Made by a program: the position numbers and the translations under genes
Shown here: positions 1,684 to 37,988 of the stretch, piece after piece
Layout of the letters: the number at the start of each line of letters is the position of its first letter
How positions within the stretch are numbered: position 1 is the first letter of the stretch
Notes under the pieces: model-generated
Told to the model about the DNA's origin: nothing
What the model saw: only the letters and a program-made list of their open reading frames with translations
Databases searched by the model: none
Source of the DNA: a virus
Virus record (IMG/VR): IMGVR_UViG_3300045988_012292
Span: 1-43,135 of that record
Reading direction: 5' to 3' (one strand)
Length of the DNA: 43,135 nucleotides

Positions 1684-1685
1684 AT

Positions 1686-2546: not shown

Positions 2547-2550
2547 TTCA

Positions 2551-2640
2551 GCAACCCCGCTTTCCGTAGTCTCTCCACGCTCTTACACCGCTTCTTCGCG
2601 TCCGCAGTGTAGGCGTCGCGGCTCCGTTCAACTTCTCTCA
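2551..2640 (-). repeat. Junction repeat copy B (precedes the radical-SAM start; has no start codon of its own)
   Basis: Encodes ..REVERSRDAYTADAKKRCKSVERLRKAGLLK-TGA in the +1 frame relative to the methyltransferase, whose own stop (2628-2630) lies inside the repeat. Confidence 0.85.
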
Positions 2641-17600: not shown

Positions 17601-18761
17601 TCATACGCAAAAGCCGGGCGCGAAGCCGAGGGAAGTGTACGCGAGGTAGTTGTCGACTGCGCCGTTGGCGCTCACACTCGCGAAACCGTTGGAGGAGCTC
17701 GCAAGCGGGGAACGGAGCCACCAAATAGCGGCGGTACTCGTGCCGTTGTGCTTGTACTTGATTTTGCTATTCCCGGCGGAATAATAGGTGTACTGCGCTT
17801 GTTTGTTCTTCTCGTTCGTGTTTCCGTAGGAAATGCTACCGAAAACCTCGAACTCCGAGAGGAGGAAAAAGTAATCCGTCGTCGCTGTGATGTAGCTCGC
17901 CGTCGAGCCGCCGCCGTTTGCCGTATTGTCCGTGTACTTGGTAACGGACTTGAGGGTGGCACGGAGCGCTTCCGGAATGGCTGCGATAATCGTCCCGGCG
18001 GCGCTCGATAGGCTCGTCCCGCAAATGTTTGTACGCATTTGCGAGTTCGCCCATCCGCCGGAGTTCGTGCTGCTCGCGTTCATAGTGAAATAGCCCGCGC
18101 CAGCGGGGGACCATCCAATATCCGGCGCATATTTGCTATCGCATAGGCAAACGTCTGTACCGCCGGAGAGCGCGGTCTTTGCAAGCTGAAAATGGATGCG
18201 GTTTGCGCCCTCGACGCTCGCGTTATGGTTAAACCCGATAATGAAAGCGTAGGTCGTGACATTCGAGAGCGAGAGCTTTCCGACCGTGCCGTTAAGCGTG
18301 ATTTCCTTGCGGTCGCCGATGCTCCAATAGTTCGCGCCCTCACCCTTGTCGGATATTTTTTTGATGGTCGCCCAGTCGTTATCATTCAGCACAGCCGAAA
18401 CAAAAGAGAGCGTAACCGCGTAACGATCCGTAAAAGTGACGCTTTTCGTATCGGACGTTTGCCCGTTGAGCGTAGCCTTTACACTCCATGTACCGGCCTC
18501 CGGCACGGTCAGCGTACACGTTCCATTGACCGATGTACCGCTTACGACCTTGCTTCCTTTTGTCGCGGTAACAGTTGCACCAGATGTCACGGTTACAATG
18601 ATTTGCAGCTCTGTGCCGGTCTGAATGGCCTGAATGGCGGAGATAAAACCGGATGGGAATTGCAGATCGGCACTGGTGTTGCCCTTTGTCCGGATCGCAT
18701 CCGCGACCTGCGTCAGCTTCGAATCCAGCGACGCCGAATCAACGACCTTGTCGTATGCCAT
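17601..18761 (-). CDS. Tail fibre / receptor-binding protein
   Basis: Start MAYDKVVDSASLDSKL is A-overlap coupled to the collagen-like gene stop. It has an Ig-like Thr/Ser/Val-rich middle and a C-terminal ..IWWLRSP..GAVDNYLAYTSLGFAPGFCV typical of Firmicute phage distal fibre domains. Confidence 0.65.
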   Translation of the reverse strand: MAYDKVVDSASLDSKLTQVADAIRTKGNTSADLQFPSGFISAIQAIQTGTELQIIVTVTSGATVTATKGSKVVSGTSVNGTCTLTVPEAGTWSVKATLNGQTSDTKSVTFTDRYAVTLSFVSAVLNDNDWATIKKISDKGEGANYWSIGDRKEITLNGTVGKLSLSNVTTYAFIIGFNHNASVEGANRIHFQLAKTALSGGTDVCLCDSKYAPDIGWSPAGAGYFTMNASSTNSGGWANSQMRTNICGTSLSSAAGTIIAAIPEALRATLKSVTKYTDNTANGGGSTASYITATTDYFFLLSEFEVFGSISYGNTNEKNKQAQYTYYSAGNSKIKYKHNGTSTAAIWWLRSPLASSSNGFASVSANGAVDNYLAYTSLGFAPGFCV

Positions 18762-19948
18762 CAGTACGCACCTCCGCTCCACGTCGGCAGCGCCGCCAGC
18801 ACGTCATTGACCATGCTCGTCTGATCTGCCGCCGTCCAGTAATCCGTCCCCTTCACCGGCGTGTGCCCGGCGGGCCCCTGCGGGCCGGTCTCACCCGGAT
18901 TGCCCTTCGGGCCCTGCGGCCCTGTGCTGCCAGTGTCGCCCTTCTCACCTTGTGGCCCCTGCGGCCCAGTATCGCCGGTCTCGCCCTTGTCTCCGGGATT
19001 ACCCTTGTCACCCTTCGCGCCGCGCGAGGGCTTCGTCGTGTCCGTGCTTCCGAGATACCAGTTCCCATTCGCACCGATCGTCGGGGTTATGCCGTTCGTT
19101 CCGTTAGTGCCGTCCGCGCCCTTCGGCCCGGTCTCGCCCTGCGGGCCTTGCGGGCCGACTGCGCCAGTATCGCCCTTGTCGCCCTTGTCGCCCTTCGCGC
19201 CCTGCAAGGGGCCGTTGTTCACCCACGCATGGGTCACGCCATCGTAGATGTAAATGTCATAAGGCTCCGCCGTGCCGACGCCGTAGGCCATACCAGCCTC
19301 CGGGTTCGCCACCGCAGCGCTCAGTGCCGCAGCGGTCGCGTAGTAGCCGAGCACCTTAAAGCCGGAGCCGGTATCGCCCTTCTCGCCCTTCTCGCCTTGG
19401 ATGCCTTGCAATCCGCGCTCGCCCTGGATGCCCTGTTCGCCCCGAATTCCTTGGATGCCTTGTTCGCCCTGATCTCCCTTGTCGCCCTTGGCTCCGCGTG
19501 ATGGTTTCCCGGTGTCGGTTGTCCCGAGATACCAGTTCCCATTCGCGCCAATCGTCGGCGTCGTGCCGTCCGTGCCGGGGTCTCCCTTGGCTCCTGTGTC
19601 GCCCTTTTCGCCTTTCTCGCCGCGCTCACCTTGCAGTCCTTGCGCTCCCTGCTCTCCTTTTGCGCCGGTCGCGCCGGTGTCGCCTTTGTCGCCTTTGTCC
19701 CCTTTTTCGCCCTTTGCGCCCGTTGCGCCAGTGTCTCCCTTGGCCCCAGTGTCGCCCTTCTCGCCTTTCGCGCCAGTGTCTCCCTTCGGCCCCTGCGGCC
19801 CCATGACGGAACCCATATCCAGCTCTTTTCCGTCCGTCAGCGTAAAGATCAGATGGCCGTCCGCCTCGCGGACTTCAATGCCCTTCACGCCGCGCGAGGT
19901 CTGCCCGCTCAATGTGACCAAAATACTGTTCGGAATTTCAACCTTCAC
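18761..19948 (-). CDS. Collagen-like (Gly-X-Y) repeat tail fibre protein
   Basis: Four long GXY tracts (GPQGPKGDTGAKGEKGDTG...). Contains an internal duplication of TPTIGANGNWYLG(T/S)TDT.KPSRGAKGDKG. Confidence 0.85.
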   Translation of the reverse strand: MKVEIPNSILVTLSGQTSRGVKGIEVREADGHLIFTLTDGKELDMGSVMGPQGPKGDTGAKGEKGDTGAKGDTGATGAKGEKGDKGDKGDTGATGAKGEQGAQGLQGERGEKGEKGDTGAKGDPGTDGTTPTIGANGNWYLGTTDTGKPSRGAKGDKGDQGEQGIQGIRGEQGIQGERGLQGIQGEKGEKGDTGSGFKVLGYYATAAALSAAVANPEAGMAYGVGTAEPYDIYIYDGVTHAWVNNGPLQGAKGDKGDKGDTGAVGPQGPQGETGPKGADGTNGTNGITPTIGANGNWYLGSTDTTKPSRGAKGDKGNPGDKGETGDTGPQGPQGEKGDTGSTGPQGPKGNPGETGPQGPAGHTPVKGTDYWTAADQTSMVNDVLAALPTWSGGAY

Positions 19949-20768: not shown

Positions 20769-23700
20769 TTACTTGTCATCTTCCAGCCACTTGTCGATGT
20801 CCTTCTCTTTCTCCTTCCGGTCATACCCGATGGCGGCATAAGCGTCCAGCAGCAGCTTCTTCAGCCGCTTGCGCTCCGCGCTGTCCGCCGCAATGTACTG
20901 CTGCTTGTACTCGCTGGTAATTTCTCGTGCCAGCGTTTCAGCTTCTACACCGTTGTCCAGATACTCCTTTGCCGCCTTGGCGACGTCTCCGGCGCTTTCT
21001 ACCGTGGAAAGGAAGCTGTCGTATTTCTTGTATCCCTTGCCTCCCTTCCACTCGCGGATTTTCCAGTAGGCGTCGTTCTCGTCGTCTGCAAAGTCGTTTG
21101 CGACGAGTTTCTGGATCGCTTTCTGCTCGCTGATTTTTCCCTCGCCGAAATCTTCCCGGATGCTTTCCTTGAGCTGTTTGTCCTTCGCGTCCTGGATCTT
21201 TTTCTCCATATACGCGATACGCTCTTTCTCGGTCATCGGCTCCATTTCCTCTTTGTCCGTATCATTGGCAATGACATTGTAGAAATAGTCCGCCTTGGCC
21301 TTGTCGCTCACGCCCTTGTAGCTCCCGAGGAAGATCTTCTTGTTTGTGTCTCCGTCGATCTTCTTGACCGCCTTGATGAAGGCGAATGTTTCCCGCTGAT
21401 CCTCGTATTCCGTCATGGTCTCGTATGCCGTGGTCTCCTTGGCGTTCAGATTCTTAAACCCGCTTTCTACCCAGTCCTGCGCAGCCTTGGTCGAGCTTTT
21501 GCCGAATACAATGTTCGTCGTCCATGCCCGGATCTTGTCCGCCGTCGTGTCAGTGTAGACCGGGTATTGCAGGACGCGCTCGCCCTTGCTGTTCATCTTG
21601 TAGCTTCCGCCCGCCTTGGTTGCAGCGGCACCTTCAATGGATTTCTTGAGCTGTCCGCCGCCAAACGGCAGTACCCAGTATGCCGCTGGGTCTTTCAGCG
21701 ACAGCAGCAGCTTCTCGGTTTTCTGCTTCGCATCCAGATCCTCGGACGCCGCAATGCTGATCATATTTCCGATATCCGGGAATGTACTGGTGTACGGCAG
21801 CTTGCCGCCGCCCACAAGATTCCCGACAAACGGCAGCTCCTGCCCGATCTCTGTTGCAAAATCGACCGTCGTGTTCAGCCAGTGTTCATCCTCATCCTTC
21901 TCCGTCCACCATTTCTGGCCTGTTGCAAGTGCGCGGATGGCATTATTCCGGTCGTGCCCGGAATAGCTTGCCGCACCCTCGATGATAAGATCGATTGGGT
22001 CAAGCATCGGTCGTCGGCCTACTACTAGTTCATAGAACTCATTGTAGATCCAGCTTTCCAGCGCAAATTTGAGCAGCGCCCATGCAATCGCGCCGACGCC
22101 TTTCTTCCGCTGTTCTGCCGGGAGATCTTTGAACACATACGAAAACGTGTTGTTCACTTCGAGTTGGAACTGTGTGAACATTTTCAGCAGCGGATTCCGG
22201 GATTCAAACAGTGTCGGCATCGCGCCCTTGCTGCGGTCTGCCATGACACCCGCCGCAAAATCGTCTGCTTCCTCCATCGCGCTTTCCTCGCTCATGCCGC
22301 GCTGAATGTTTTCCATGTACCGCGCCCGGACGATGACGTTGGAGGAATACCAGTCGATCAGCTCCATCGGCTTCGACAGCACCTTGCTCGCGTTGTCCGC
22401 CCAGCTGTTGACCAGCGTATCACTGCCCGCTCTGCTGGTAAGAAAGTCGCTCCGCTCTGCGAAATCATCATGTACCCATGCGTTCGCCGCCTGCTGGTAC
22501 ATTGCTTTCGCTACAGACGTGATCTTCATCTGTGCCGCCGCCTGCGCAATGACGCCGAAGTTCGTCAGCCACGATCCCGGATTCAGCGCCACCATATTTG
22601 CCGCAACCTTCGTCTGCCACTTCTTCAGGAAACTGTGCACCGACCGGTTCAGCAGCGATTCCACATCGCGGTCGAGCGTGCTTTTTTTGTTCGCAAGCAG
22701 ATTGGTATACTCATCGACGTTCGCCACCCACAGAGACAGTGCATAGCGCCCTTCCCGCTTGATCTCGTCGATCTTATCTTTCTTGTCTTCCTCCGTCAGA
22801 TTTTCGTTCGCGCGGATGGCGTCGATCTGTTCCTTGATTCCATCGTTCGATGCAAGGTAGCGCGCATTTCTCGCCAAGGACCGCAGATTCTGAATGACGT
22901 CCGTGTAATAGATGACGCTCGCCGCGCCCTCGACGTACTTGTCGAATCCCTTCACCGCGTCGTATGCCGTGCGGAATCCCTTTCGTTCCTGTGCGTTGGC
23001 GAGCCACGGGATTCCGGGCTTGAAATTCTTTGTCTGTCCGTTGATCGTCGTGGGCAGCGCGTCAGGGCCGCGTTGTTCCTTCCGCTTTTTGAGCCACCAT
23101 GTGAAGATTCCCTTCGCATCATTCGGCAAAACTTCGATCCCAGCCTCGACGCCCATTGCCATTCCCATGAGGTTCAGGATTCCGTCCGACGTTCCAATCC
23201 CGAAGTGTGGGAAATACCCCGCCCGGTAGTTGACCGGCGCATAGCCGTTTCGGATGCGCGTCGCGTTCATCATCTTGTAAAGCTCATCATAGATCTTGCG
23301 GAACTCCTTCACCGCGTTCTGGATCTTGGCCTTGTCTAACCCCGGATTCTTGTTCCAGAGTTCCGAGACGATGCCTTCCCATTCTTCGAGTGTTTTTCCA
23401 TCCCGCTCCTTGATGCGCCCCTTGCTGGCTTCCATCACGCGGATGTTGTCCTGCGCCTCGCCGAGGATCTGCACGGCTGCGGCCTCGCTGACGATGTTTC
23501 CCTTTGCTCTGTGCCGGCTCAGCTTCAGCGCCTTTACGCGGGCGCGCAGATCGTTCTTCATCCGCGTGGCGTTCGCCGTCGCCTTTCGCACCGGTTCAAA
23601 ATAGCCCTTGTTGACCGCCTCGGCGTTCTCCTTCGGCGCGATGTCGCGGACGTTCCGCGTCTGCGTCTCCCTGGCATACTGGAATCCGGTCTTCTTGTCT

Positions 23701-26700
23701 TTCCACTGGTTGATGTCTCCGAGCGCCGTCTGCGCGTTTTTGTCCCGCTGTTCGTTGATGTGCTTGTTGTATTCTGCGATCTTCAAGGTCGTCAGGTCAT
23801 AGTCCGCCTTGGCCTCATAGACTGCAAGGATAGAATCCGCGTTCTCCATCCCGGCCACGCTCTCCGGCGTAATGTCGCCGCGCAGCAGCCGGTTCACCAT
23901 GCGGCGGTCTTCCGCCGTCAGAAGATACTTCTGCGCCTCCCGCTCATAGTTCCGTCTCTGGTCTGCTTGCAGATTATAGAGCGCCTGCACATCTTCTTCC
24001 GTCGTCGGCCCCTCATAGACCTTCTCTGTCCGTTTCTGCGCTTCGGCGTAGCGCCGCGCCACGCGCAGATCGCCCATCATGTCCCGGACGTTTGCCTCAA
24101 AATCGACCTGTGCCGTCCGCTTCCAGACCGCAGCGTTCTTTCCATTGTAGCTGCGCACGTTCTCTTTCGTGGTCGCCATGCGGTTCGCGCCCATCAGCAA
24201 AAGCATTTCCTGCTCCGCCGCATCGGTCACGCCACGCGGGAACAGCTCCGGAATCTTCCGGCTCATGATCTCATAGACCTCGCTCAGAGATTTCCCGCCG
24301 GATTCCACCACATTCAGCTTCCCTCTGGTGCGCCGCTTGAACTGCTCGTAGTTTTCAAGTGCCGCCCGCTCCTCTGCGCTCAGGGTGATCTCCGTCATCC
24401 GAAGCTGCGGCGCGACGCGCTCGATCTTCTCATAGAACGCCTTTTCCAGCTTCACGCCCTCTTCATAGACCTTTTCAAACGTTTTGTCCATCGTCTCTTT
24501 CGTGACGTCTCCGGTCTGGAGGTATTCGTTCGTCAGTTCGTCCAGCAGCTCCCGCGTCTTCTTGACGTTCTGCCCGAACGGCATCCGGAAGCTCCGTTCG
24601 AGTTGGTATAGGAAGTCATTCTGCGCTCTCCGCAAATAGGTCTGTGCCCGCTTCGGAATCGTGTTCAGCGTATAGCCGCCCTTCGGCACTTCCTGTTCCT
24701 CGGTCTGTTCCTTCGCCTCCTGCTCAGCATCTGCCGAGAATTTCCCATTGACATTTTCGACGTTCCGTGCTACCCTTGATTTAGGCAAGTCACCATTATC
24801 CGACCGCGTTTCATCCACAAGGGACGAAACGAAAGAGTTGGTATCGGTGACTTGCTCTATTTTTGTCATGCCATAGAACGTTGCGCCCATATCAGAGAGG
24901 CCGATGTTGAATACCCCTTCAAATGCTCTCCCGCCCACAACAAATGTGGTTTTATAATAATCAAACCCATCCGTTGCAAACGCATGATTTTTGTGATCGT
25001 CGGAGTGTCCGACATATTCAGCCGCTTCCAGCATTTCATCCAGATTGGCCGCAGCGCGCATCTTCGCTTGGAATACTGTGTCGCTATATTGACTCCCATC
25101 ATACGCATATTTCTTCGCGCCGTCGAAACTGTATTCTCCGCCACGCCGACGAACCGTCACAGCTGCATATTCTCCGAGCGGAAGCGTCTGGCCGGAGAAT
25201 TCCTCCTGGATGACCTCTTTCGCCAGCTTTGCGGCTTCCTTGTTGTTCAATCCGATAAACCGCCCCTGTTGCCGATCTACCAATACATACTTCCGGCCAT
25301 CCTCCGACGTTTCCAAACTAAACTTTCCTTTCGGCGGCGCTCTGGCGCTGTCGGTTTTTTCTGTGCTTTGGGTCTTTTCATTCGTCTGCCACAGCGCATC
25401 CATAGCTTCCTTCGAAAGTCCCCCAAACCGCTCGATCCCGGCATAAGCGTCCGCGCAGATCTCCTCGATGTAGTGTGCCAGCTCTTCCTCGGTGTAGCAT
25501 CCTTCATAAGCCTCGGCGTATCGTCGGGCCAGCGCCCGCAGCTTCTCCTTGCCGAGCTTCTTTGTGATCTGCTCCCGCACCGCATCCAGCATATCCGGCG
25601 CGCGGTCTGCCATGTTGTGAAATTCCTCATGCCGCCCGATCTGCTCCACACTGAGCCGTTTGTCGTTGGCCCTGACCCACACGGAATCGCCCATCGCCAC
25701 GCCGTTCATGTACCGCGTCACCTGAGACGCCTGATTGACGACGCCGATCTTCCCGACAAAGAAATGCACATTCTTGACGCCGTTCTTCTTCAGGTGCTCC
25801 GCCGTCTCCCGCAGCGCCGGTGTCCAGAGGCTTTCCGGCACTTCTTGAAAACTCTTTTCCGCCGAGCCGTTTTTGATCCCTATTTCTTTTCCACTGAGGT
25901 AGGGCTGCTTTGCATTGCGGACACGATTTTCGATGTCAGCGCGTTCCGCTGCCGCGCTCCTTTGCTGGGATCGCGCTTCTGTGCGGCCTGTGCCCGCTGC
26001 CACGCTTCCACTCTGCTTTCCGGAATCCATACCTGCATCCCGTTTGCCGCCGTCATCAGCAGCCGCTTTTCCTGTTCTGCCATTTCCGTTTTCCTTTCCG
26101 GCGGCCCATGCCGCCTGTGTGATCTTCGGCTGTACGCCCTGTGCGGCCCTCTGCGCCGCGTTCAGTGCCGCGCCGCTTGCGCCATATTGATAGGCCCGGT
26201 TCGCCGCCTCGGCGTACTGCGCCGCGCTCAGCTCCCCGCCTCCCCTTCTGATATATGCAGTATAGCCCTGTGCGACCGCATCCGTCAAGGATGCGGTCCA
26301 TCCATACTGTGCCGCCGCCTGCTGCACCGTGCGGCTCGCGCTTCGCTCCGTCTGGCGGTCAAGCGTCTCATCCGCCCGCTCCTGCTGGCTCCGCAGCCGC
26401 TCCCGTGCGTTGGCCGCGTCCTGCATAGCTTCCGCATCCTCTTGGATTTTCCGTGCGTTCACGCGGTCTGCCTCGCCCCGGTTGATGGCCTCATCGTTAT
26501 CCAGCACATCCAGCGCGGCTTCCGCCTGCTCGTGCGTGATCTCTCCGGCGTCCTCCGCGTCAAAGATCGCTTTCCGCTGCATATTGCGGTCATAGTCCGC
26601 CCGAGACTGCTGCACGTCCTCCACGGCCTTTTCATATTGGTTGTATGCTCTGCTGCTCTGCGCGGCCTCCGCAGCCTCCTGTGCCGCCTGTGTCTCCCCA

Positions 26701-28805
26701 GCGTCGTCCATCGCAGAGAGCACCCGCCCGATGTCTTCAATATCCGGCGTCCGACCGTAGTCCAGCTTTTCCTGCACGATGGCCGCAGCCTCGCGCACCT
26801 CCGTATTTTCAGACTGCGCACCTTGACCCGCGAGGATCTTCGCGTAATATTTTGTCTGCCGCTCCTGCTTCGCCTGCGTCAGCCCGCCCGGCATCCCGGC
26901 GAGGTCGCCCAGCGCCGCGAGGAACACGCCGCCGAGGAACGAATTGCCGAGACTTTCCCATGTCACCGAGCCTTTCAGACTTCCATTCAAAACGAGGCTC
27001 TGGAACGTCGGCTCTAAAAGCTCCGCGATCACTTCTTCCAGACCTTCCGACACGAAATCAAGCGCCTTGCTGTCCAGCACTTTCATGACCGTCTTGCTTT
27101 TCGTCAGCTTCGCCACAGCACGGTTCACCAGACCCACATCCTCATCATAGACCGGGTTTCCTCCGAACAGCTTTTCCGACAGGATCTCCACCGCCGCATT
27201 TTGCAGACCGATGAGCACAGCCTGTGTGTCCGTCGCCCCTGCATTGTGCGCGTCGAGCATAGCATTTCCGCCCGCACGAATTCCCATCACCGTCAGCGGC
27301 GTGAGCGCGCCGCCCGTCGCCGTAGACACCATCATGTCGCCCACCATCGCTCCGGCGGATGGAAGCTGCTGCAAGATCCACGTCCCGACCGGGCTGTGAT
27401 CCTGCAGCACCTCGTCCATGATCCGGTTATAATCATCCTGCCACAGCTGCGCGTCTGTATAGTCATACTCCGTCGCCATTCGGTCTGCCAGCGAACGCAG
27501 CTTCTCCGCGTATCGATCGCCGCCGAGCGCGTGCAGCATCGCAGAATCCGCAATGTCGCGCAGCGCCCACGCGACGCCCTGATTGACCTTCGTTTCCGCG
27601 ACGTTGTGCGCCATTTCAAACCCGCTCATCGACTGCGCATTGCTGCCCTCATAAAACGCCGTCAGCGCGTCATCCACAAAGTTCCCCGCCTTTTGCAGCC
27701 ATCCCGGCGCGATGCGGTTCTTCTGCCGTTCGAGTTCCTTCTTTTCCTGCTGCAAGGCCGCATCATATCCAGACGCGCCGCTCCGCGTCCATGCGTCCTT
27801 CTGCTGCGCGTCGATCTCATCGATCCGCGCCTGCATCTGCTCCGCCGTCCAGCCCGCATATTTGTCCTGTTCGGCCTGCCGCTCTGCCTGTCTCCCGGCC
27901 TTGTATTCCTCCTGCCCCTTCCAGTATGCGCGGTCGTCCAGCGAGCGGCGCTGTTCTTGCAGCGCCTTTTTCTCCTGCTGTAAATCGGCATCCCAGCCGG
28001 AATGGCCGTTCTGCGTCCATGCAGCCCTCTGGCGCGCGTCGATCTCCGCGATCTGCCGCTGCACGTCCGCGCTCTCGGCCCGCAGCGTGTCAGAGCTTTT
28101 CGCCTGTTCTGCTTCCCGCTTCGCCACAGCCTCATCATACCCGGCATACACGCCGCGCAGATAGTTGTCATACGAGCCATACTGTTCCTGCATCGCGCTC
28201 GACCGGTTGAATTCCTGCTCGCTCAGCTGCTCTTTGCGCTTCTTCTTCCGTTCCTCTCTCCAGTCTTCGTTTTCATGAACTGTTTTCAGTTTTCCGCTCT
28301 CTTGCGCAGCTGCGGCTTCTACGTTCTTATAGACATTTGTATTCAGGATCTTCTGCTCTGCCGGGGTCAGCGGTTTCCCGCTCATCTGTTTCTGCCGAAG
28401 CTCCTTCTGCTTGAGCGCGTATGTGTAATTCTGGTATGCCGTCTTCTTTGCCGCCGTCGGCATGTTCGACTGCCCATACCCCCTCGCCACAGCCCCCATC
28501 GCGTCCGCCCGGCGCTCATAGCCCTGCGTCACCTGCCGCTGCGCCTGTTGCTGCATTGCCGCGCGGTAGTTGGCAAATGCGTCGTAGTTCCGCTCCTCCG
28601 CGTTGTACTGCCGCTGCCGCATGGTCTGCGGAAAGTTTGTGGACTGCTCATATTCCCGTAGCGCGTCAGCGCCGCTGCGCTTCCATGTGCCGCTCTGCGT
28701 CTGCTCCTGCTGCTGCATTTGGGCAGCTCCGGTGTTCTTCGCATAGCTGCTCGCCTGTTCATACTCCCGCAGCGCATCCGCGCCGCTCCGTTTCCACTTT
28801 GCCAT
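20769..28805 (-). CDS. Giant (2678 aa) virion-associated polyvalent-like protein with an HExxH metallopeptidase-like module
   Basis: Single uninterrupted ORF. It has N-terminal tandem repeats, Gly-rich hydrophobic segments, HEEFH at aa 1059-1063 (nt 25617-25631) and a long C-terminal region with hydrophobic/Gly-rich stretches. It lies in the structural operon. Confidence 0.8.
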   Translation of the reverse strand: MAKWKRSGADALREYEQASSYAKNTGAAQMQQQEQTQSGTWKRSGADALREYEQSTNFPQTMRQRQYNAEERNYDAFANYRAAMQQQAQRQVTQGYERRADAMGAVARGYGQSNMPTAAKKTAYQNYTYALKQKELRQKQMSGKPLTPAEQKILNTNVYKNVEAAAAQESGKLKTVHENEDWREERKKKRKEQLSEQEFNRSSAMQEQYGSYDNYLRGVYAGYDEAVAKREAEQAKSSDTLRAESADVQRQIAEIDARQRAAWTQNGHSGWDADLQQEKKALQEQRRSLDDRAYWKGQEEYKAGRQAERQAEQDKYAGWTAEQMQARIDEIDAQQKDAWTRSGASGYDAALQQEKKELERQKNRIAPGWLQKAGNFVDDALTAFYEGSNAQSMSGFEMAHNVAETKVNQGVAWALRDIADSAMLHALGGDRYAEKLRSLADRMATEYDYTDAQLWQDDYNRIMDEVLQDHSPVGTWILQQLPSAGAMVGDMMVSTATGGALTPLTVMGIRAGGNAMLDAHNAGATDTQAVLIGLQNAAVEILSEKLFGGNPVYDEDVGLVNRAVAKLTKSKTVMKVLDSKALDFVSEGLEEVIAELLEPTFQSLVLNGSLKGSVTWESLGNSFLGGVFLAALGDLAGMPGGLTQAKQERQTKYYAKILAGQGAQSENTEVREAAAIVQEKLDYGRTPDIEDIGRVLSAMDDAGETQAAQEAAEAAQSSRAYNQYEKAVEDVQQSRADYDRNMQRKAIFDAEDAGEITHEQAEAALDVLDNDEAINRGEADRVNARKIQEDAEAMQDAANARERLRSQQERADETLDRQTERSASRTVQQAAAQYGWTASLTDAVAQGYTAYIRRGGGELSAAQYAEAANRAYQYGASGAALNAAQRAAQGVQPKITQAAWAAGKENGNGRTGKAAADDGGKRDAGMDSGKQSGSVAAGTGRTEARSQQRSAAAERADIENRVRNAKQPYLSGKEIGIKNGSAEKSFQEVPESLWTPALRETAEHLKKNGVKNVHFFVGKIGVVNQASQVTRYMNGVAMGDSVWVRANDKRLSVEQIGRHEEFHNMADRAPDMLDAVREQITKKLGKEKLRALARRYAEAYEGCYTEEELAHYIEEICADAYAGIERFGGLSKEAMDALWQTNEKTQSTEKTDSARAPPKGKFSLETSEDGRKYVLVDRQQGRFIGLNNKEAAKLAKEVIQEEFSGQTLPLGEYAAVTVRRRGGEYSFDGAKKYAYDGSQYSDTVFQAKMRAAANLDEMLEAAEYVGHSDDHKNHAFATDGFDYYKTTFVVGGRAFEGVFNIGLSDMGATFYGMTKIEQVTDTNSFVSSLVDETRSDNGDLPKSRVARNVENVNGKFSADAEQEAKEQTEEQEVPKGGYTLNTIPKRAQTYLRRAQNDFLYQLERSFRMPFGQNVKKTRELLDELTNEYLQTGDVTKETMDKTFEKVYEEGVKLEKAFYEKIERVAPQLRMTEITLSAEERAALENYEQFKRRTRGKLNVVESGGKSLSEVYEIMSRKIPELFPRGVTDAAEQEMLLLMGANRMATTKENVRSYNGKNAAVWKRTAQVDFEANVRDMMGDLRVARRYAEAQKRTEKVYEGPTTEEDVQALYNLQADQRRNYEREAQKYLLTAEDRRMVNRLLRGDITPESVAGMENADSILAVYEAKADYDLTTLKIAEYNKHINEQRDKNAQTALGDINQWKDKKTGFQYARETQTRNVRDIAPKENAEAVNKGYFEPVRKATANATRMKNDLRARVKALKLSRHRAKGNIVSEAAAVQILGEAQDNIRVMEASKGRIKERDGKTLEEWEGIVSELWNKNPGLDKAKIQNAVKEFRKIYDELYKMMNATRIRNGYAPVNYRAGYFPHFGIGTSDGILNLMGMAMGVEAGIEVLPNDAKGIFTWWLKKRKEQRGPDALPTTINGQTKNFKPGIPWLANAQERKGFRTAYDAVKGFDKYVEGAASVIYYTDVIQNLRSLARNARYLASNDGIKEQIDAIRANENLTEEDKKDKIDEIKREGRYALSLWVANVDEYTNLLANKKSTLDRDVESLLNRSVHSFLKKWQTKVAANMVALNPGSWLTNFGVIAQAAAQMKITSVAKAMYQQAANAWVHDDFAERSDFLTSRAGSDTLVNSWADNASKVLSKPMELIDWYSSNVIVRARYMENIQRGMSEESAMEEADDFAAGVMADRSKGAMPTLFESRNPLLKMFTQFQLEVNNTFSYVFKDLPAEQRKKGVGAIAWALLKFALESWIYNEFYELVVGRRPMLDPIDLIIEGAASYSGHDRNNAIRALATGQKWWTEKDEDEHWLNTTVDFATEIGQELPFVGNLVGGGKLPYTSTFPDIGNMISIAASEDLDAKQKTEKLLLSLKDPAAYWVLPFGGGQLKKSIEGAAATKAGGSYKMNSKGERVLQYPVYTDTTADKIRAWTTNIVFGKSSTKAAQDWVESGFKNLNAKETTAYETMTEYEDQRETFAFIKAVKKIDGDTNKKIFLGSYKGVSDKAKADYFYNVIANDTDKEEMEPMTEKERIAYMEKKIQDAKDKQLKESIREDFGEGKISEQKAIQKLVANDFADDENDAYWKIREWKGGKGYKKYDSFLSTVESAGDVAKAAKEYLDNGVEAETLAREITSEYKQQYIAADSAERKRLKKLLLDAYAAIGYDRKEKEKDIDKWLEDDK

Positions 28806-28814
28806 AGCTCCCCC

Positions 28815-29963
28815 TTATTCCAGCGGAATGCCAAACCCCGCCTTGTTCAAGATGCTCGCCAGCTCGTTATACTGCTTCTTGCCGGTCGCGTTTCCGAGAT
28901 TGAGCTGGTGCACGACGCCTTGGAACAACTCATACGCCTTGTCCTTCTGCCCCATCGCCAGCCATTCATACATCCCTCGCTTGAGCTGATCATACGTTTT
29001 CGACTGCACCCCGCCGACACCACCTTTGTTGTAGGTGTTGTCGATGTAGCCTTTTCCGCTCTGTGCGGTCGTCTCCTTGCTCTTGCTGCTCCCGCCCGAT
29101 CCGCCGCTCGCCCTGCTCTGCGCCGCGAGCTGCTGCAAGTAGGCGCTGTTCTCGTTCGCCGCCTTCTGCGCCCAATAGCTGAGCTGGTCGCTCCACTGGT
29201 TGTAGTCCCGCGAATAGGCGCTGTCGTAGGCGCCGCGCGCGTCGGAGAGGTCGGAGTAGTAGTCGTTCACCGTGTCGCGGTACCGGCTGTACGCCTGATT
29301 CTCGCGGTCGCTGAGCAGTCCATACTGGTTGTAGAGGTCTGTGCCCTCGTCGCGGTAGCGGTTGTATGCCGCATTGTAAAGATCCGGCACAATGTCGTTC
29401 AGGTTTTGCAGATAGGCATTGTACGCCTGCTGCCCCACCTGTTCGCCGTAGGTGCTTCCATAACCGCCGGTCAGCGCCGCCGCCTGGCCCATCGTGTCCT
29501 GCATCGCGAGCCGCCCCTGCCGCTGGTACTGCTCACGGTACTGCTGATATACCGGGTCTGTCCCAATGTCATAGCTGAACGGCTTCCGGTTCGCGATCCG
29601 GTTGTAAAGCTCCGTCAGCTCGCCGTCCCACTGGCTTTGATATTCCCCCGGTCTGCGGGACTGCACCTGATTGAGATACGCCTGCGCTTGCTGCACAGCG
29701 GAGCCTGGCGTGTAACCGCCTTCCAGCCCATTGACTTTGTTTTGCGTATACCCGCTCACGCCCTGCGAGAGCAGCGGACTTTGCCGCTGCGTATATTGCC
29801 CCTTGTAGTTGTAGGTCGTCTGTTTCTTGTTGCTCACCTGGCTCTTGTAGCTGCCGTCGGCGTTGACACCTGTGATCCGGTATGTTCCGCCGCCGGTCAC
29901 GACCTCGTCGCCCGCCGAAAGGCCGGCCGGCGCCTTTCCGTTCTCTACGCGATAAATTGCCAT
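28815..29963 (-). CDS. Q/Y/N-rich structural protein, hypothetical (possible internal/ejection protein)
   Basis: 382 aa, rich in repeated YNxY/QQ motifs (YNAYLQNLNDIVPDLYNAAYNRYRDEG..). It lies between the adaptor and the giant gene. Confidence 0.7.
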   Translation of the reverse strand: MAIYRVENGKAPAGLSAGDEVVTGGGTYRITGVNADGSYKSQVSNKKQTTYNYKGQYTQRQSPLLSQGVSGYTQNKVNGLEGGYTPGSAVQQAQAYLNQVQSRRPGEYQSQWDGELTELYNRIANRKPFSYDIGTDPVYQQYREQYQRQGRLAMQDTMGQAAALTGGYGSTYGEQVGQQAYNAYLQNLNDIVPDLYNAAYNRYRDEGTDLYNQYGLLSDRENQAYSRYRDTVNDYYSDLSDARGAYDSAYSRDYNQWSDQLSYWAQKAANENSAYLQQLAAQSRASGGSGGSSKSKETTAQSGKGYIDNTYNKGGVGGVQSKTYDQLKRGMYEWLAMGQKDKAYELFQGVVHQLNLGNATGKKQYNELASILNKAGFGIPLE

Positions 29964-29975
29964 GTCTTCACCCCT

Positions 29976-30353
29976 TTACAGTTTGAAATACGTCGCCGCC
30001 TGCCGCGGCATGTGTGCCTGATTGTATGCGTTCCAAAATCCCTGCCAGTAGCTGTTGTACTTTGCAGCGGCGTTGTTGTACTTCGTCAGCTCGCCGTTCG
30101 CGTCGCAGATCTTCATCTCCAGATACCAGCGGTAGATGTCCTCGTACGGAAACGGGATCATCAAAATCGTGTCGAGGTCTACCCCCGGCGGATAGCCGGT
30201 GAATTCCCCCATATCCTCTTCCCGCTCATGCGCCCGGAATACCTCACGATCTGCAATGCCGTCCAGCTCACTGAGCCAGTGCACCTTGTCATCCTCGCCG
30301 TACTGATTCGGCATCAGCCGGTCGATTGTTTCAATCGCTTCCCTGATTCTCAT
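29976..30353 (-). CDS. Putative head-tail adaptor/connector-type protein
   Basis: Start MRIREAIETIDRLMPNQYGEDDKVHWLSELDG.. with SD GAAGGAGGG. Contains FPYEDIYRWYLEMKICDANGELTKYNN. This pattern recurs next to capsid genes in Firmicute phages. Confidence 0.5.
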   Translation of the reverse strand: MRIREAIETIDRLMPNQYGEDDKVHWLSELDGIADREVFRAHEREEDMGEFTGYPPGVDLDTILMIPFPYEDIYRWYLEMKICDANGELTKYNNAAAKYNSYWQGFWNAYNQAHMPRQAATYFKL

Positions 30354-30424
30354 AAACCCTCCTTCTACGGAAAAGAGGGAGCTTTGCAGCCCCCTCCCGT
30401 CCATGCCGCACTGGCATTTCGTTG

Positions 30425-30679: not shown

Positions 30680-31774
30680 TTAGTTCGCCGGGTCTGTCGC
30701 GGAATACGCGCTCAGGCTTTCAATGCGCACCATGCGATCCTCGTATAGGATCTTCGCCGCGCCCTCATACTTATAGCCGACGGTGCTGAACTGGTTCAGC
30801 GGGCCGCCCGCCTCGTCCTTCGTCTTCACGATCATCTCCATGTTGCCGCCGTCCGGGTCGATCATCGCAAAGGCGTCCTTGCCCATGACCAGCGTCGCGT
30901 ACACGCTGTAATAGACCGCCGGGTTGCCGCTCGCAGCCTCCGTCTTGACCGGGCATGTGCTGTCGTTCCAGATCTTCTGGTTCGTCGATTCGATGAACCG
31001 CACGCCGTGCAGCTCGCCGATCTCGCCGTTGAACATCTCGGTCGTCGCAGCGTACTTGTGCGCCTCGATCCATTCCTTGCTCTGCCGCAGGTCGTATGCG
31101 ACGGACGGATGGATGACGGCGACATACTTGCCGTTGATCGTCGGCGCGTGCATCTTCTTCAGCGTGGTCACGGCCTTGTTGATCTCCGTCGGCGTCAGAA
31201 CCGACGTCGTGTCCATGCCGCTTCTCGTGGTCACTTCGGTGTGCACGCCCGTCGTCGCGTTCACCTTATCGCACAGCTGCTTCACCGTGCCGCCCACGAC
31301 CTCGTTGCGCACCATCTTGTCCACGCTCATGCCGCCGGACGCGCCGAGCTCTTCGGTCGCGCCGAGGATGGCGTTGTCAATGGCGTGCAGTTCCAGCTGG
31401 TCGGAGATCGTGACGTACAGGCCCTTCTGCACGATGTCCTGCGTCATGCTGGACATGCCGAGCTTCTGGCCCGTCGGGATGACGCCCTCGGTCAGCGTCT
31501 CCGCCTCCGGCAGCGTGTTCCACTTGCGCCATTCCACGCTCTTGCCGTGGTTGCGCGGAAGCGCCTGTTTCTTCGCCAGCTGCGCGAAAATGAGTTCCGG
31601 ACGCGCATTCTCCAAGAGCTGCGTGTCATAAAACGTCTTCATCGTCGGCGTCAGTTTGTTGGTCGTGTCAAACGCCGTAGTCGTGCCCGTGTATGCGTTC
31701 ACATAGTTGCCGGTCGCGTTGACCAGCGTACCCGCATCCGCGAAAAACTGGAATCCAATGTTGCTGTTACCCAT
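30680..31774 (-). CDS. Major capsid protein, N4-gp56-like (HK97-fold) family
   Basis: Start MGNSNIGFQFF with SD GAAGGAGGAAAAAATC. Contains MKTFYDTQLLENARPELIF..GKSVEWRKWNTLPEAETLTEGVIPTG..YVTISDQLEL..GEIGELHGVRFIEST. The longer ORF-track N-terminus is Arg-rich junk. Confidence 0.8.
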   Translation of the reverse strand: MGNSNIGFQFFADAGTLVNATGNYVNAYTGTTTAFDTTNKLTPTMKTFYDTQLLENARPELIFAQLAKKQALPRNHGKSVEWRKWNTLPEAETLTEGVIPTGQKLGMSSMTQDIVQKGLYVTISDQLELHAIDNAILGATEELGASGGMSVDKMVRNEVVGGTVKQLCDKVNATTGVHTEVTTRSGMDTTSVLTPTEINKAVTTLKKMHAPTINGKYVAVIHPSVAYDLRQSKEWIEAHKYAATTEMFNGEIGELHGVRFIESTNQKIWNDSTCPVKTEAASGNPAVYYSVYATLVMGKDAFAMIDPDGGNMEMIVKTKDEAGGPLNQFSTVGYKYEGAAKILYEDRMVRIESLSAYSATDPAN

Positions 31775-31793
31775 GATTTTTTCCTCCTTCTTC

Positions 31794-32651
31794 TCAGAGG
31801 ACGATTTTTTCCCCCCTCTGAACCCTTCTGATGATGTCCTCGCGCTGCTGCTTCGACCAGCTGCGCGGGTCTGTGTTTGTGAATTGCCCGCCGTTGGCGT
31901 TCCCGCCGATCTCGGCAGGCCGTGCGCCCTGCGCGGCAATGGTCTGCATGACGTTGTTTCTCGCCTGTGCTGCCACCACCTGCGCTTGCGCTGCCTGGAT
32001 CTCTGCCATGTGTACCACTTCGTAGGCTGTCTTCGGCGGGACGTTCGCCGCAATCAGCCTGGCGAAGTCTTCGTTTGCCATCTCGGCCTCAAAGCTCGTC
32101 CCGTACTGCCCGGCAACATCCCGGTCAAATGCCGACCGGATGCCGTTGAACTGCTCCTGAAGCTGGTACTCCTGCAGCTGGCGGCGCATCCCTGCGGTTT
32201 CCGCGCGAGAAGCATACTCGCTGCGCACCGCGTCAGCCGTCGAGCCGCGTTCCATGGCTTCTGCTTCGTAGAGACGGTTATCCGCACCGAACTTCTGCGC
32301 CAGCGCCGCATAGTCGATCTTTCTCGGGTCTGAGGTGTCAATTCCATAGAGCACGCCCAGCCGGTCGACCACCGGAGCCATCGCTTCGATCTGCGCCTTC
32401 ATCGCCCCCTGCCCTTTGAGCCGCTGCTTCACGGCCTTCTGTACCGCCGCGCCGACTGCGCTGTCGTACTGCTGCTTGTACTTTCCCGCGATCAAGCTCT
32501 CAAAGGTCTCCTCCTGCTGTCCCTGAGCGTCCGGGACGTTGGCCTGCTGCTGCGGCGCTTGCGCCTGTGCCGGAGCTGCCTGCCCGCTCATCTGCTGACC
32601 GGCGACGTCAGCCGCGCCCACCTGGGGCGCTCCTGCCATAAGTTCCTCCAT
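31794..32651 (-). CDS. Scaffolding protein
   Basis: 285 aa, Q/A-rich and helical, between portal and capsid. The C-terminal ..RPAEIGGNANGG..SKQQREDIIRRVQRGEKIVL is typical of Firmicute phage scaffolds. Confidence 0.7.
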   Translation of the reverse strand: MEELMAGAPQVGAADVAGQQMSGQAAPAQAQAPQQQANVPDAQGQQEETFESLIAGKYKQQYDSAVGAAVQKAVKQRLKGQGAMKAQIEAMAPVVDRLGVLYGIDTSDPRKIDYAALAQKFGADNRLYEAEAMERGSTADAVRSEYASRAETAGMRRQLQEYQLQEQFNGIRSAFDRDVAGQYGTSFEAEMANEDFARLIAANVPPKTAYEVVHMAEIQAAQAQVVAAQARNNVMQTIAAQGARPAEIGGNANGGQFTNTDPRSWSKQQREDIIRRVQRGEKIVL

Positions 32652-32733: not shown

Positions 32734-34668
32734 TTATTCCGGCTGCGTGGCCTTCTGCGCCTGTTCCCGCGCGTTTTGTACCTTCGTCGGCTCCTGCTGC
32801 TCGCCGGTTTTGATCTCTGCCAGCTTTTCATCCTGCGGAGCCTGCACGGCCTGTCCGCCCTCCATCAATACCTGTTCGGCCAGCGCCTGCCCGAGCGAAG
32901 GATCATATCGATCTGCCACGGCAAGCGCCATCTGCTGCCACTGCGCCAGACGCTCCGCAAGGTCGGCGTTCTCCTGAATCTTCTGCACGATGCTGTCCTT
33001 CCCGTCGAAGTCCATCATGTCCAGCGTCGCGAGCGCCTGATCCACCATTTGCGGATTGAAGAAGCCCAGCTGGAAGAATTGCAGCGCCAGCTCGTTCTGC
33101 GCCATCGCCGTATATTCGCTCGCCTTCTGTGCCGAAACTTCGATATCAAATACCGGCTTCCGCATCCCGTCCGGCTGCCCGTCCTTGCCATAGAGCGGCT
33201 GCATCTGCAGCCCTTGGTTGGAATACTGCACGAATTCTTCCGCGCCGCGCTGCCCCACAATGCGGAACTGACGCGGCAGATCGTAGAATTGCCGAATTCG
33301 CTCAATCACCATGCGGATGAGCCGCGCATAAGCCCGGTATGCCGACTTTGTGCTGTCCTTGCTCGACCGGCCCGATGCTTCCTGCAGCGCCGCAATCGCG
33401 GAGGCCGCCGTCACACCGGAGCTTGTCGCGCCGTTGTTGACGTCCGTGTTGCCGGTCGTCCATTTCAGTTCCTCGATCTTGTTCTGCAAAATTGTGATGT
33501 AGTTCGCGCTCAACGGGTTTACCTGGATCTGCATCAGCGAGTCCTGACTGAGATTGCCGTCCACGTGCACAAAAGGCTTCGTCCAGTCCGCAAATTCTTC
33601 CTCGTTTACCGCGCCGTCGCTGCGCCGAAACCACCGGGGCGACGCCGCCATAATTGCGTTCTTGATGATCGCCTGATTCATCCGGTCGATCTGCTCCTGC
33701 GCGCTCTTGCCGATGTCGATGTAGCCATAACCGGCGATGCTGCCCTCCACCGGGAACAGCGCATCCACCACAAACGGATAATCCCCGTCGTCGTAAAGGC
33801 CCGTCTCCGCCATGGGGCTTCCGACCGGCGTCTGCACAACCGAGCCGTCCGGCATCTGCTGCGTGCTATATTTCTGCTCGCCGTCGTTCTCGGTCGCCAG
33901 CAGTACGTTGTCTCCGACGAATTTGCAGAAATGCAGCACACTCTTGCCGCCCCGCCACTTCTTGTAGTACCAGTCCACCACCATGCTTTTGTTGTCCGTC
34001 GGCACGGTGTCATCTGTGTTGTACTGCTGCATGATGTTGCCGGTCGATTTCAGCTTCCCTTCCAACTCCGGATACTTGGCCGTCAGGATGTCGTTGTCGA
34101 CCAGCTCCGTCACAAAGACGTTTTTCGATTTCTGAATGTCTGTGATCCCCGGCTCCCAGAAAAAGCTCAGAATGTCTACCGCGTTCACGGCGATGTCGCC
34201 GATTCCGTTCAGCTTGGAGCTGTCCCAGCTCACGTGCCAAACGAGCGTTCCCTGCTTCAGCTTCGTCCACTGGCTGTCCGAGTAGACTTCCTCGAAATCG
34301 TTCTGTTCTAGGATCACCGGCAGGATGGACGAGAGCCGCTTGGCTTCTCCACGGTCGTCCGGCTCCCTTGGCCGGACGGCGGGCGCAGGGTATGCCGCGA
34401 TCGCGTCCGCGTGCTTTCCCATGATGACGTTAAAGAGCCATGCGCTCGCCCACTTATCGTCCATCGGATTCCCTTTTTGAATCTGCCGCCAGCTCTTGAG
34501 CCGCCACCAGTTTTCGCTCGCCGTCACGCGCGCTTCAAGGTTTGCCTTGCCCGCCTTGTATTTTTGCAGCGTGGCAAACGCCTGCCGCACCTGCGCTTCA
34601 CCGATCGGCTGCGTCAGCACCGGCGCCATCTGTTCATTCTCCATCGTCTGCATGTTCTGTTCCTGCAT
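32734..34668 (-). CDS. Portal protein
   Basis: Start MQEQNMQTMEN with SD AAGGAGGAAGCCG. 644 aa. N-terminal LQKYKAGKANLEARVTASENWW. Position (portal, scaffold, capsid order) fits. Confidence 0.75.
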   Translation of the reverse strand: MQEQNMQTMENEQMAPVLTQPIGEAQVRQAFATLQKYKAGKANLEARVTASENWWRLKSWRQIQKGNPMDDKWASAWLFNVIMGKHADAIAAYPAPAVRPREPDDRGEAKRLSSILPVILEQNDFEEVYSDSQWTKLKQGTLVWHVSWDSSKLNGIGDIAVNAVDILSFFWEPGITDIQKSKNVFVTELVDNDILTAKYPELEGKLKSTGNIMQQYNTDDTVPTDNKSMVVDWYYKKWRGGKSVLHFCKFVGDNVLLATENDGEQKYSTQQMPDGSVVQTPVGSPMAETGLYDDGDYPFVVDALFPVEGSIAGYGYIDIGKSAQEQIDRMNQAIIKNAIMAASPRWFRRSDGAVNEEEFADWTKPFVHVDGNLSQDSLMQIQVNPLSANYITILQNKIEELKWTTGNTDVNNGATSSGVTAASAIAALQEASGRSSKDSTKSAYRAYARLIRMVIERIRQFYDLPRQFRIVGQRGAEEFVQYSNQGLQMQPLYGKDGQPDGMRKPVFDIEVSAQKASEYTAMAQNELALQFFQLGFFNPQMVDQALATLDMMDFDGKDSIVQKIQENADLAERLAQWQQMALAVADRYDPSLGQALAEQVLMEGGQAVQAPQDEKLAEIKTGEQQEPTKVQNAREQAQKATQPE

Positions 34669-34852
34669 CGGCTTCCTCCTTTTCCTCTTTTTTGTGGATC
34701 TGCTCCGCTTGGATCTGCCCAATCGCCATCCCGTGCAGCTCTGCCATGAGCGGCTGCAGCACCAGTTCCACCACCACAGGCGGCAGACCGGATTCATTGA
34801 TGTCCTTGATCAGCTTCTCCCGCAGCGCCTCGATCGCCATTCCAATTCCCAT
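34634..34852 (-). CDS. Small acidic protein upstream of the portal, hypothetical
   Basis: 72 aa. It overlaps the portal start by 35 nt. Confidence 0.5.
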   Translation of the reverse strand: MGIGMAIEALREKLIKDINESGLPPVVVELVLQPLMAELHGMAIGQIQAEQIHKKEEKEEADAGTEHADDGE

Positions 34853-37876: not shown

Positions 37877-37988
37877 CGGCCCCACCCCTTTCATTCATGT
37901 ATTCACCGTTATGCGCCCATTCTCCGGTCTTTCCTCCGGGAATTTTTGTGCCTTCTCGCATATTCATTCGCTTTTCTGTGCATATTTT

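Follow-up and report, generated by a model that had tools for sequence, protein, structure and literature searches.

Background

The giant virion RNA polymerase of phage N4, gp50, is carried in the capsid, reportedly packaged without processing, and enters the host by injection. In phage T7, the helical proteins gp14, gp15 and gp16 are stored in the capsid and ejected as a conduit through the envelope; they are separate, smaller proteins, and gp16 possesses a transglycosylase. MuF / SPP1 gp7-type toxins and DarB/DdrB of phage P1 are also head-internal and bring variable effector domains into the host. Polyvalent proteins were defined by Iyer, Burroughs, Anand, de Souza and Aravind in 2017 (J Bacteriol; PMC5512222), and that paper places a zincin peptidase at the centre of the class as its hub, predicts that the individual domains are released by autoproteolysis, assigns a zincin-like peptidase domain to N4 gp50, and describes P1 DdrB as proteolytically processed, with a C-terminal zincin peptidase. 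The Stx phage phi24B encodes gp47, a protein of 2811 amino acids (aa) with LPD5, LPD1, LPD38 and MuF-C/peptidase domains. Proteomics finds it in abundance in virions, cryo-electron microscopy does not resolve it, and it has been proposed to be an ejection protein (bioRxiv 10.64898/2026.04.10.717836). In Clostridium clostridioforme LM41, the prophages phi1 and phi4 each have an open reading frame (ORF) of ~8 kb that makes up almost 20% of the prophage (PMC11318856).

In this study, we analyzed a giant gene in IMG/VR virus record IMGVR_UViG_3300045988_012292, a stretch of viral DNA of 43,135 nucleotides (nt) that was considered at its full length and is referred to as the window. The element is a temperate podovirus-type phage of gut Oscillospirales with the giant gene in its virion module. 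The product of this gene, referred to as the window protein, combines a conserved carrier with an exchangeable cassette that is bounded by a short recurring junction motif, and it is very likely a polyvalent-class protein of the virion module.

Architecture of the giant protein and its relatives

The giant ORF was located at 20769..28805 on the minus strand from the ORF list and its translation; it starts with ATG and encodes 2678 aa followed by a stop codon. An earlier, sequence-only reading of the same DNA had described a 2678-aa ORF covering about 19% of the genome within the structural operon, and this was borne out, the ORF occupying 18.6% of the 43,095-bp circle between the capsid and fibre genes. 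The overall interpretation given in that reading is partly supported by the results below: the class and the peptidase stand, and "multi-effector" and "ejected" go further than the results for this member. A search of a collection of 5.8 billion proteins returned more than 2000 relatives of 2600-3400 aa, some of which carry the Pfam domains ART-PolyVal, MuF_C, LPD3 or PBECR5. When the window protein was compared with 120 relatives by BLAST, the N-terminal ~900 aa and the C-terminal ~1300 aa were common to them, while the alignments broke near aa 905 and between ~aa 1160 and 1380. From this and further analyses, four separable conserved units were distinguished, whose distributions are independent of one another: among 270 proteins bearing the C-terminal core (C-core), the N-domain was found by jackhmmer in 240, the peptidase-like domain in 154, the cassette in 66 and the C-core in all 270. 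The features of the window protein are as follows.

aa 1-380: repeat-bearing, charged N-terminus
aa 4-17 and 41-54, nt 28644..28796, minus strand: exact duplication of WKRSGADALREYEQ, located by exact string search
aa 195-215, nt 28161..28223, minus strand: one copy of the SEQEFNRSxAMQxQYGSYxNY unit, located by regular expression
aa 252-285 and 328-361, nt 27723..28052, minus strand: second duplication, 22 of 34 residues identical by hand count
aa 380-700, nt 26706..27668, minus strand: conserved N-domain, Gly/Ala-rich and mildly hydrophobic
aa 700-945, nt 25971..26708, minus strand: charged, Ala/Gln-rich linker, defined by composition
aa 949-1139, nt 25389..25961, minus strand: zincin-like metallopeptidase (MPTase-like) domain
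aa 1059-1063, nt 25617..25631, minus strand: HEEFH, the sole HExxH, with putative zinc ligands and catalytic Glu
aa 1114-1123, nt 25437..25466, minus strand: EEICADAYAG, putative third zinc ligand (gluzincin-type Glu helix)
aa 1161-1163, nt 25317..25325, minus strand: junction motif 1, KFS, at the left cassette breakpoint just after SARAPPKG
aa 1161-1354, nt 24744..25325, minus strand: exchangeable cassette of ~194 aa
aa 1355-1357, nt 24735..24743, minus strand: junction motif 2, KFS in ENVNGKFSAD, at the right cassette breakpoint
aa 1381-2500, nt 21306..24665, minus strand: conserved all-alpha C-terminal core
aa 2501-2678, nt 20772..21305, minus strand: variable, highly charged C-terminal tail

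Both N-terminal duplications had been noticed in the sequence-only reading and were recovered here. The short repeats went unreported by self-BLAST and were confirmed through exact string search; the doubled WKRSGADALREYEQ motif occurs in 44 of the 270 family members. The SEQEFNRSxAMQxQYGSYxNY unit is present in one to three copies in 105 of the 270 proteins, many of them with two or three, and always lies within the first 10% of the protein. No Pfam match was obtained for the N-domain at E<=10. As for the Gly-rich hydrophobic stretches that had been pointed out from the sequence, they exist and are mild: the highest 19-residue Kyte-Doolittle means are 1.2-1.4, at aa 491-509, 624-642, 1875-1893 and 2236-2254. 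Classical transmembrane helices were rejected, since no 19-residue segment of the protein rises above 1.4. At the other end of the protein, the tail occurs in at least two alternative versions among the homologues, with BLAST end-points at residue 2587 or 2676 of the window protein.

Cassette exchange between the peptidase-like domain and the core

P0002 is a relative with 81% overall identity to the window protein. In the pairwise alignment the cassette is the clearest break, identity dropping right after SARAPP and returning at ENVNGKFS, so that the breakpoints fall between APP and KGKFS and at ENVNGKFS. The same position in other relatives is occupied by one to four blocks, among which ART-PolyVal (93 bits), MuF_C (40-56 bits), PBECR5 (192 bits) and LPD3 (36 bits) were matched, and in more distant members PBECR3 and LPD23 were found there; MuF_C is classed as a PBECR nuclease domain by Iyer et al. 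(PMC5512222). The window cassette is 85% identical to that of P0078/P0079, proteins whose core is 37-38% and whose N-terminal part is 54-58% identical to the window protein, and its guanine-plus-cytosine content is 0.50 as compared with 0.58 for the whole gene. Both observations fit a recent horizontal exchange of the cassette.

Another cassette position lies upstream of the peptidase, near aa 905 (nt ~26090; alignment break at residues 904/905 of the window protein). It is empty in the window protein and filled in the homologues P0006, P0007, P0078 and P0095 by a block of ~180 aa that begins AAQYSIS...ILKEHPEI. The window protein has one cassette only, and the term "multi-effector" that had been suggested for it goes too far.

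Within the cassette, the AKMRAAANLDEML... module lies at aa 1247-1304. The LPD3 profile (PF18798) scored 22.2, 23.8 and 24.3 bits against the cassette (E 4e-5 to 2e-4, profile positions 39-97 of 114), whereas the gathering threshold of this model is 27 bits. Filing the cassette under LPD3 was rejected on this sub-threshold score and on an hhalign probability of 1.1% against a threshold-passing LPD3 cassette (P0077 type, 36 bits). The cassettes of the window protein, P0002 and P0008 were considered as independent types and this was rejected as well, because jackhmmer searches from them converge on one family; for the same reason the 100% hhalign scores among the three are trivial. A homologue search with the cassette by itself gave no matches, not even the parent proteins, and is read as the limit of a word index with a short query. 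The AlphaFold2 model of the cassette is unreliable (predicted local distance difference test, pLDDT, <50).

It had been proposed from the sequence that the module following HExxH is effector-like. The position does hold polyvalent effectors in the orthologues, and the part of the proposal that concerns the window's own cassette is weakened by its sub-threshold LPD3 match. For this cassette, binding or inhibition is no less likely a role than enzymatic activity. That it is an effector with a host target is conceivable, though we would put it at somewhat less than even, and "effector" as a label for it is a guess.

The zincin-like HExxH domain

An HExxH metallopeptidase-like module had been recognized in the sequence-only reading, with conservation of HExxH in homologues set beforehand as its test. 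Iterative jackhmmer searches found the domain in 154 of the 270 C-core proteins and HExxH was intact in all 154 domains. In a 17-sequence alignment, every domain-bearing sequence keeps HExxH and, further downstream, E-[EI]-[IV]-x-A-D-A-Y-A-G, down to 26% identity. An ExxxD downstream of HExxH resembles the third-ligand helix of the gluzincin thermolysin. The domain (aa 949-1139) was modelled by AlphaFold2 at a pLDDT of ~90, with the order N-terminal helix, five-stranded sheet, HEEFH helix, two inserted helices and EEICADAYAG helix; in the numbering of the model, the five strands lie within 68-101, the HEEFH helix at 109-124 and the EEICADAYAG helix at 162-178. This order agrees with the zincin core that Iyer et al. 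describe for the peptidases of polyvalent proteins, in which variable inserts lie between the two catalytic helices (PMC5512222).

Many other family members have a domain with the motif HELTH in the same position. It is homologous to the HEEFH domain by hhalign (probability 95%, E 3.6e-8), which pairs both the HExxH helix and the Glu helix. No Pfam match was obtained for the peptidase domain at E<=10, and a profile search of the PDB with the peptidase alignment gave no match. Judged by its motifs, predicted topology and family context, aa 949-1139 is a zincin-like domain, and that it is an active peptidase seems moderately probable.

In some larger members, such as P0129 and P0131, the HELTH domain is followed by another motif of HExxH type, HEIQHAIQxAEGF; in P0131 it is near the region matched by LPD23. 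The region around it may be a second peptidase-like domain.

The junction motif [KR][FY]S

Each block of the cassette region opens with a basic residue, an aromatic residue and serine, as in APPKGKFSLE, ENVNGKFSAD, NNPDIRYSAS, KQKYSA and LNGVRFSAQ, and distant representatives have the same junction context, typically DIR[YF]S[ILV][ST][ED]. In 211 members, the stretch from the first HExxH to the core contains 164 copies of [KR][FY]S[AILMVTSP] as against 23.7 ± 5.4 in composition-preserving shuffles, a roughly 7-fold excess, and 70 copies lie upstream of HExxH as against 36 expected, although these counts are not independent because the sequences are related. Thermolysin-type enzymes favour a hydrophobic P1' residue, and a cut before the aromatic residue would fit this preference. 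Cleavage at [KR][FY]S by the peptidase is a tentative proposal, which we regard as possible and hold rather below even. Searches by term of Iyer et al. (PMC5512222) turned up no defined cleavage site, no cassette positions and no [KR][FY]S motif.

An alternative is that the peptidase is itself an effector, which cuts host defence, translation or envelope proteins or helps to breach the wall, with the junctions being domain starts or linkers. A host-target role is listed among the alternatives by Iyer et al. (PMC5512222), and wall degradation by the gp47 peptidase was proposed by the phi24B authors (bioRxiv 10.64898/2026.04.10.717836). The junction motif, moreover, also occurs in 11 of the 41 members that have no HExxH in their N-terminal part. 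This alternative is opposed by the nature of HExxH gluzincins, which are protein or peptide endopeptidases, while the usual phage wall hydrolases have folds other than gluzincin, and by the presence in this phage of its own Amidase_2-type endolysin. The peptidase, furthermore, is always directly upstream of the cassette array, the very part in which the motif is ~7-fold enriched. We judge the host-target explanation rather unlikely, without its being incompatible with self-processing.

One stand-alone core protein, P0239 (1315 aa), begins MYEGQPRFSF, that is, at a junction motif. It could be a natural carrier that is split at the junction, or an artefact of gene calling.

The C-terminal core

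The core contains dozens of residues that are invariant in the alignments, including those of GYFPHF, DEYTNLLAxKKSxLDR, ADRSKGxxPT, TQFQLEVNN and PFGGGQ. An eight-sequence profile searched against 1.84 billion representatives matched 3483 clusters at 50% identity, of which 2060 reached E<=1e-30; the best 150 matches are mostly proteins of 2000-3900 aa in which the core is C-terminal, with a few of core size only. The core was matched by none of the Pfam, PHROG or NCBIfam models and by no sequence in the PDB. Choline-binding protein A, the sole PDB profile match of the core and peptidase alignments, was set aside as a chance match (E 0.1).

From a 40-sequence alignment of the shortest representatives, AlphaFold2 gave an almost entirely helical core model (mean pLDDT 75.9; predicted template modelling score, pTM, 0.66). 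Searched against BFVD with Foldseek, it returned 65 matches at E<=1e-3, and the top-ranking ones cover C-terminal pieces of further giant viral proteins whose names derive from polyvalent domains. They include a "PolyVal ADP-Ribosyltransferase" (E 4e-45), a "Phage MuF C-terminal domain-containing protein" of Podoviridae sp. (E 4e-13) and a "Structural protein" of Cellulophaga phage phi14:2 (E 4e-5), together with proteins labelled "Nuclease", "Type I restriction enzyme", "DNA methylase" and "Helicase". Most of the structural relatives are labelled Podoviridae sp. The template modelling scores are low (0.25-0.55), as expected of large flexible helical proteins, and the matches are read as a shared predicted carrier fold rather than as precise superposition.

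A long and almost all-helical core, in a giant gene just upstream of the fibre genes, could also belong to a purely structural, tail- or tape-measure-like protein that delivers nothing, its cassette being a decoration or a receptor-binding insert. That no tail-tube, adaptor or nozzle genes were recognized among the 142-, 382-, 411- and 592-aa neighbours speaks in the same direction. The core model is nevertheless a compact multi-helix body and not one long coiled coil, the portal is P22-like, and most structural relatives of the core carry the Podoviridae label already mentioned. No tape-measure, tube, sheath or chaperone families are found nearby. In agreement with the sequence-only reading, which saw no recognisable tape measure, tube or sheath, Pfam, PHROGs and NCBIfam gave no match to these families among the larger ORFs scanned (<=592 aa; the smallest ORFs were left unscanned), and no tape-measure family matched the window protein. 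The cassettes of orthologues, finally, are ADP-ribosyltransferase and nuclease domains, for which Iyer et al. give intracellular targets (PMC5512222). A purely structural protein is accordingly improbable.

Comparison with polyvalent proteins and other giant phage proteins

The polyvalent-like character that had been suggested from the sequence was upheld through the orthologues: ART-PolyVal, MuF_C/PBECR, LPD3 and LPD23 in the cassette positions of homologues with the same carrier make the window protein a member of the class defined by Iyer et al., with which these orthologues share ART-PolyVal, MuF-C/PBECR and LPD domains. Like its phage-type members, the window protein is a giant multidomain polypeptide among virion genes, with a zincin-like hub and extensive domain mosaicism. 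It differs in having a single cassette, in that LPD3 is the sole polyvalent-network domain to give any match in the protein itself and stays at 22-24 bits under the 27-bit cut-off, and in that none of the Pfam models from PMC5512222 matches the peptidase, the N-domain or the 1100-aa core.

Against 50,697 phage records, tblastn gave one match only, the unannotated faecal contig MT835607.1, and against 72,556 plasmids no match for any part of the protein. According to Iyer et al. (PMC5512222), the families to which the payload domains belong are frequent in conjugative elements; given the absence of any plasmid match, the carrier looks phage-specific, which fits a virion-related role. The carrier is conserved across a very large set of temperate podovirus-like Oscillospirales phages.

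Gp47 of phi24B (vb_24B_48, annotated with 2807 aa) has a similar size and likewise belongs to a temperate podovirus. Its host is Gram-negative, and its gene is at the end of the late region and not between capsid and fibre genes. It is an analogue of the window protein in class and size, not a demonstrable homologue. The LM41 ORFs amount to much the same finding, made in a gut Firmicute in culture, the likeness being one of ORF size and genome share; LM41 is a Lachnospiraceae isolate, and PMC11318856 gives no domain anatomy for the 8-kb ORF. Unlike N4 gp50, the window protein has no RNA polymerase domain and no similarity to gp50 (no Pfam, PHROG or PDB match), and Pfam found in it no MuF (Phage_Mu_F), DarB methylase-helicase or ParB domains. 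The likeness to the T7 ejectosome is a functional analogy only.

The protein might alternatively be made late and stay unpackaged in the cytoplasm, as an anti-defence or superinfection-exclusion hub of the producing or lysogenic cell. Such a role would suit a temperate phage, with its serine integrase and with prophages in metagenome-assembled genomes (MAGs), and the turnover of cassettes suits any arms-race function. It accords poorly with the probable translational coupling of the giant gene within the virion operon and the conserved synteny, with the presence of the phi14:2 "Structural protein" in the fold class, and with the abundance in phi24B virions of an analogue matched in size and class. 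We regard it as quite improbable, marginally more so than the purely structural protein.

Proposed mechanism

Taken together, the protein may be described as a conserved carrier, consisting of the N-domain, the zincin-like metallopeptidase and a core of ~1100-1300 aa, plus an exchangeable payload, with unrelated domains apparently swapped into the position between peptidase and core by recombination at short [KR][FY]S junctions. It would be made late together with the virion proteins and packed in the capsid. At infection it would leave through the short tail, before or with the DNA, and the amphipathic, Gly-rich helices of the N-domain and the C-core may help to bridge or open the envelope. 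The peptidase would then cut at the junctions, which would free the cassette into the cell and part the two halves of the carrier. The anatomy of the domains, the conserved catalytic motifs, the exchange of cassettes, the enrichment of the junction motif, the position in the virion module and the prophage hosts are results; packaging, ejection, channel formation, self-cleavage and cassette activity are inferred here, partly by analogy with phi24B gp47, the N4 virion RNA polymerase and T7 gp15/16. By these analogies, packaging and ejection are probable. The reading as a whole, a packaged and ejected polyvalent carrier with a swappable cassette that is freed by the peptidase, is the one we favour, with a confidence slightly below that for packaging and ejection.

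Several points weigh against this reading. Whole-protein searches of Pfam, PHROGs, NCBIfam and PDB sequences found nothing beyond the sub-threshold LPD3 match. Structure comparison, which had been suggested as a check in the sequence-only reading, did not help either, as neither predicted structure matched the PDB significantly: the best Foldseek E-value was 0.16 for the peptidase model, with no zincin, for a query that included 220 low-confidence residues, and 1.2 for the core model. The cystatin and NTF2-like sheets that headed the peptidase list were dismissed as meaningless, falling on the low-confidence cassette. As no established zincin was matched, the zincin call draws on motifs, predicted topology and homology to unannotated domains. 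The case for packaging draws by analogy on the proteomics of phi24B gp47 and on the "Structural protein" label of phi14:2, and homology to gp47 was rejected, since hmmsearch with the C-core and phmmer with the whole protein both gave negative bit scores against vb_24B_48. No segment is hydrophobic enough for a classical transmembrane helix. Among the 66 members of the cassette family no polar residue is invariant, in addition to the 1.1% hhalign probability noted above. As to the junctions, besides the relatedness of the counted sequences and the motif-bearing members without an N-terminal HExxH, [KR][FY]S could be a structural element at domain starts or a scar of recombination rather than a cleavage site.

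A broader version may be entertained, in which the family is a plug-and-play polyprotein system, the zincin reading [KR][FY]S as a self-cleavage code, any domain recombined into the cassette position being automatically packaged, injected and released, and the core representing a new and very widespread ejection or conduit family of Gram-positive gut podophages. In this full form the idea is speculative and on balance unlikely. If the junction motif is a real processing site, the autoproteolysis idea of Iyer et al. would become a defined sequence rule, and the motif could serve to equip phage particles with proteins of choice. The gut of humans and animals is rich in temperate Oscillospiraceae phages, which have hardly been studied, and this family offers a testable picture of protein delivery, with a conserved carrier, cassettes of fast turnover, including ADP-ribosyltransferases and nucleases, and a candidate cleavage motif. 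The C-core, with thousands of members and no Pfam, PHROGs or NCBIfam model, is a clear gap in annotation. The junction motif, the defined cassette positions and this widespread unannotated core are worth following up.

Genome context

The window ends with the same 40 nt with which it begins (a 40-bp terminal direct repeat, nt 1-40 and nt 43096-43135), which points to a complete genome of 43,095 bp that is circular or was assembled as a circle. P0001, a protein 99% identical to the window protein, is carried on a 42.5-kb contig. The features around the giant gene are the following.

37989-39347, minus strand: large terminase
36116-37894, minus strand: 592-aa protein, PHROG labelled "internal virion protein"
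34864-36099, minus strand: 411-aa virion-module protein
32734-34797, minus strand: P22-like portal
30680-32053, minus strand: major head protein
29976-30404, minus strand: 142-aa virion-module protein
28815-29963, minus strand: 382-aa virion-module protein
28808..28814, minus strand: ribosome-binding site GGGGGAG, 5 nt upstream of the giant-gene ATG, read from the sequence
18761-19948, minus strand: collagen-repeat fibre with five Collagen repeats
17601-18782, minus strand: DUF6273 / Hoc-like protein
14899-15600, minus strand: Amidase_2-type endolysin
10286-11782, plus strand, unlike the virion genes: large serine recombinase/integrase (phrog_95, E 7e-111)
626-3392, minus strand: DNA methyltransferase (phrog_363), radical-SAM (phrog_9298) and PAPS-reductase-like (phrog_424) genes

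The gene order is terminase, portal, capsid, giant gene and collagen-like fibre, and the same order was found in the relative L003, although the giant protein there has different cassettes. The TAA of the gene preceding the giant gene lies at 28815-28817, 9 nt upstream, and translation of the giant gene is therefore probably coupled to that of this virion-operon gene. The phage is temperate, as indicated by the serine integrase and by relatives that sit integrated within MAG contigs as long as 575 kb. The relatives come from MAGs of Oscillospiraceae, Butyricicoccaceae, Acutalibacteraceae and other Clostridia, in human, rabbit and rumen samples; several of them sit on MAG contigs of 100-575 kb and are hence prophages.

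The collagen-repeat fibre and the DUF6273/Hoc-like protein (17601-19948) are likely receptor-binding proteins, and the three-gene cluster at 626-3392 may be a DNA-modification or anti-restriction module. The 592-, 411-, 382- and 142-aa virion-module proteins had no informative family match, save for the PHROG label of the first, and presumably include unrecognised adaptor, nozzle or tail parts. In the fibre region of L003, a HicB-like antitoxin gene and a small partner gene (24376-24968, minus strand) are inserted on the opposite strand, and the pair, which the window does not share, looks like a moron. The major-head ORF as listed has 457 aa and a TTG start and shares 260 nt with the 285-aa gene upstream of it (31794-32651, minus strand); the PHROG match of the ORF begins at residue 114 and the L003 homologue has 364 aa, and the true start is probably ~90-110 codons further in.

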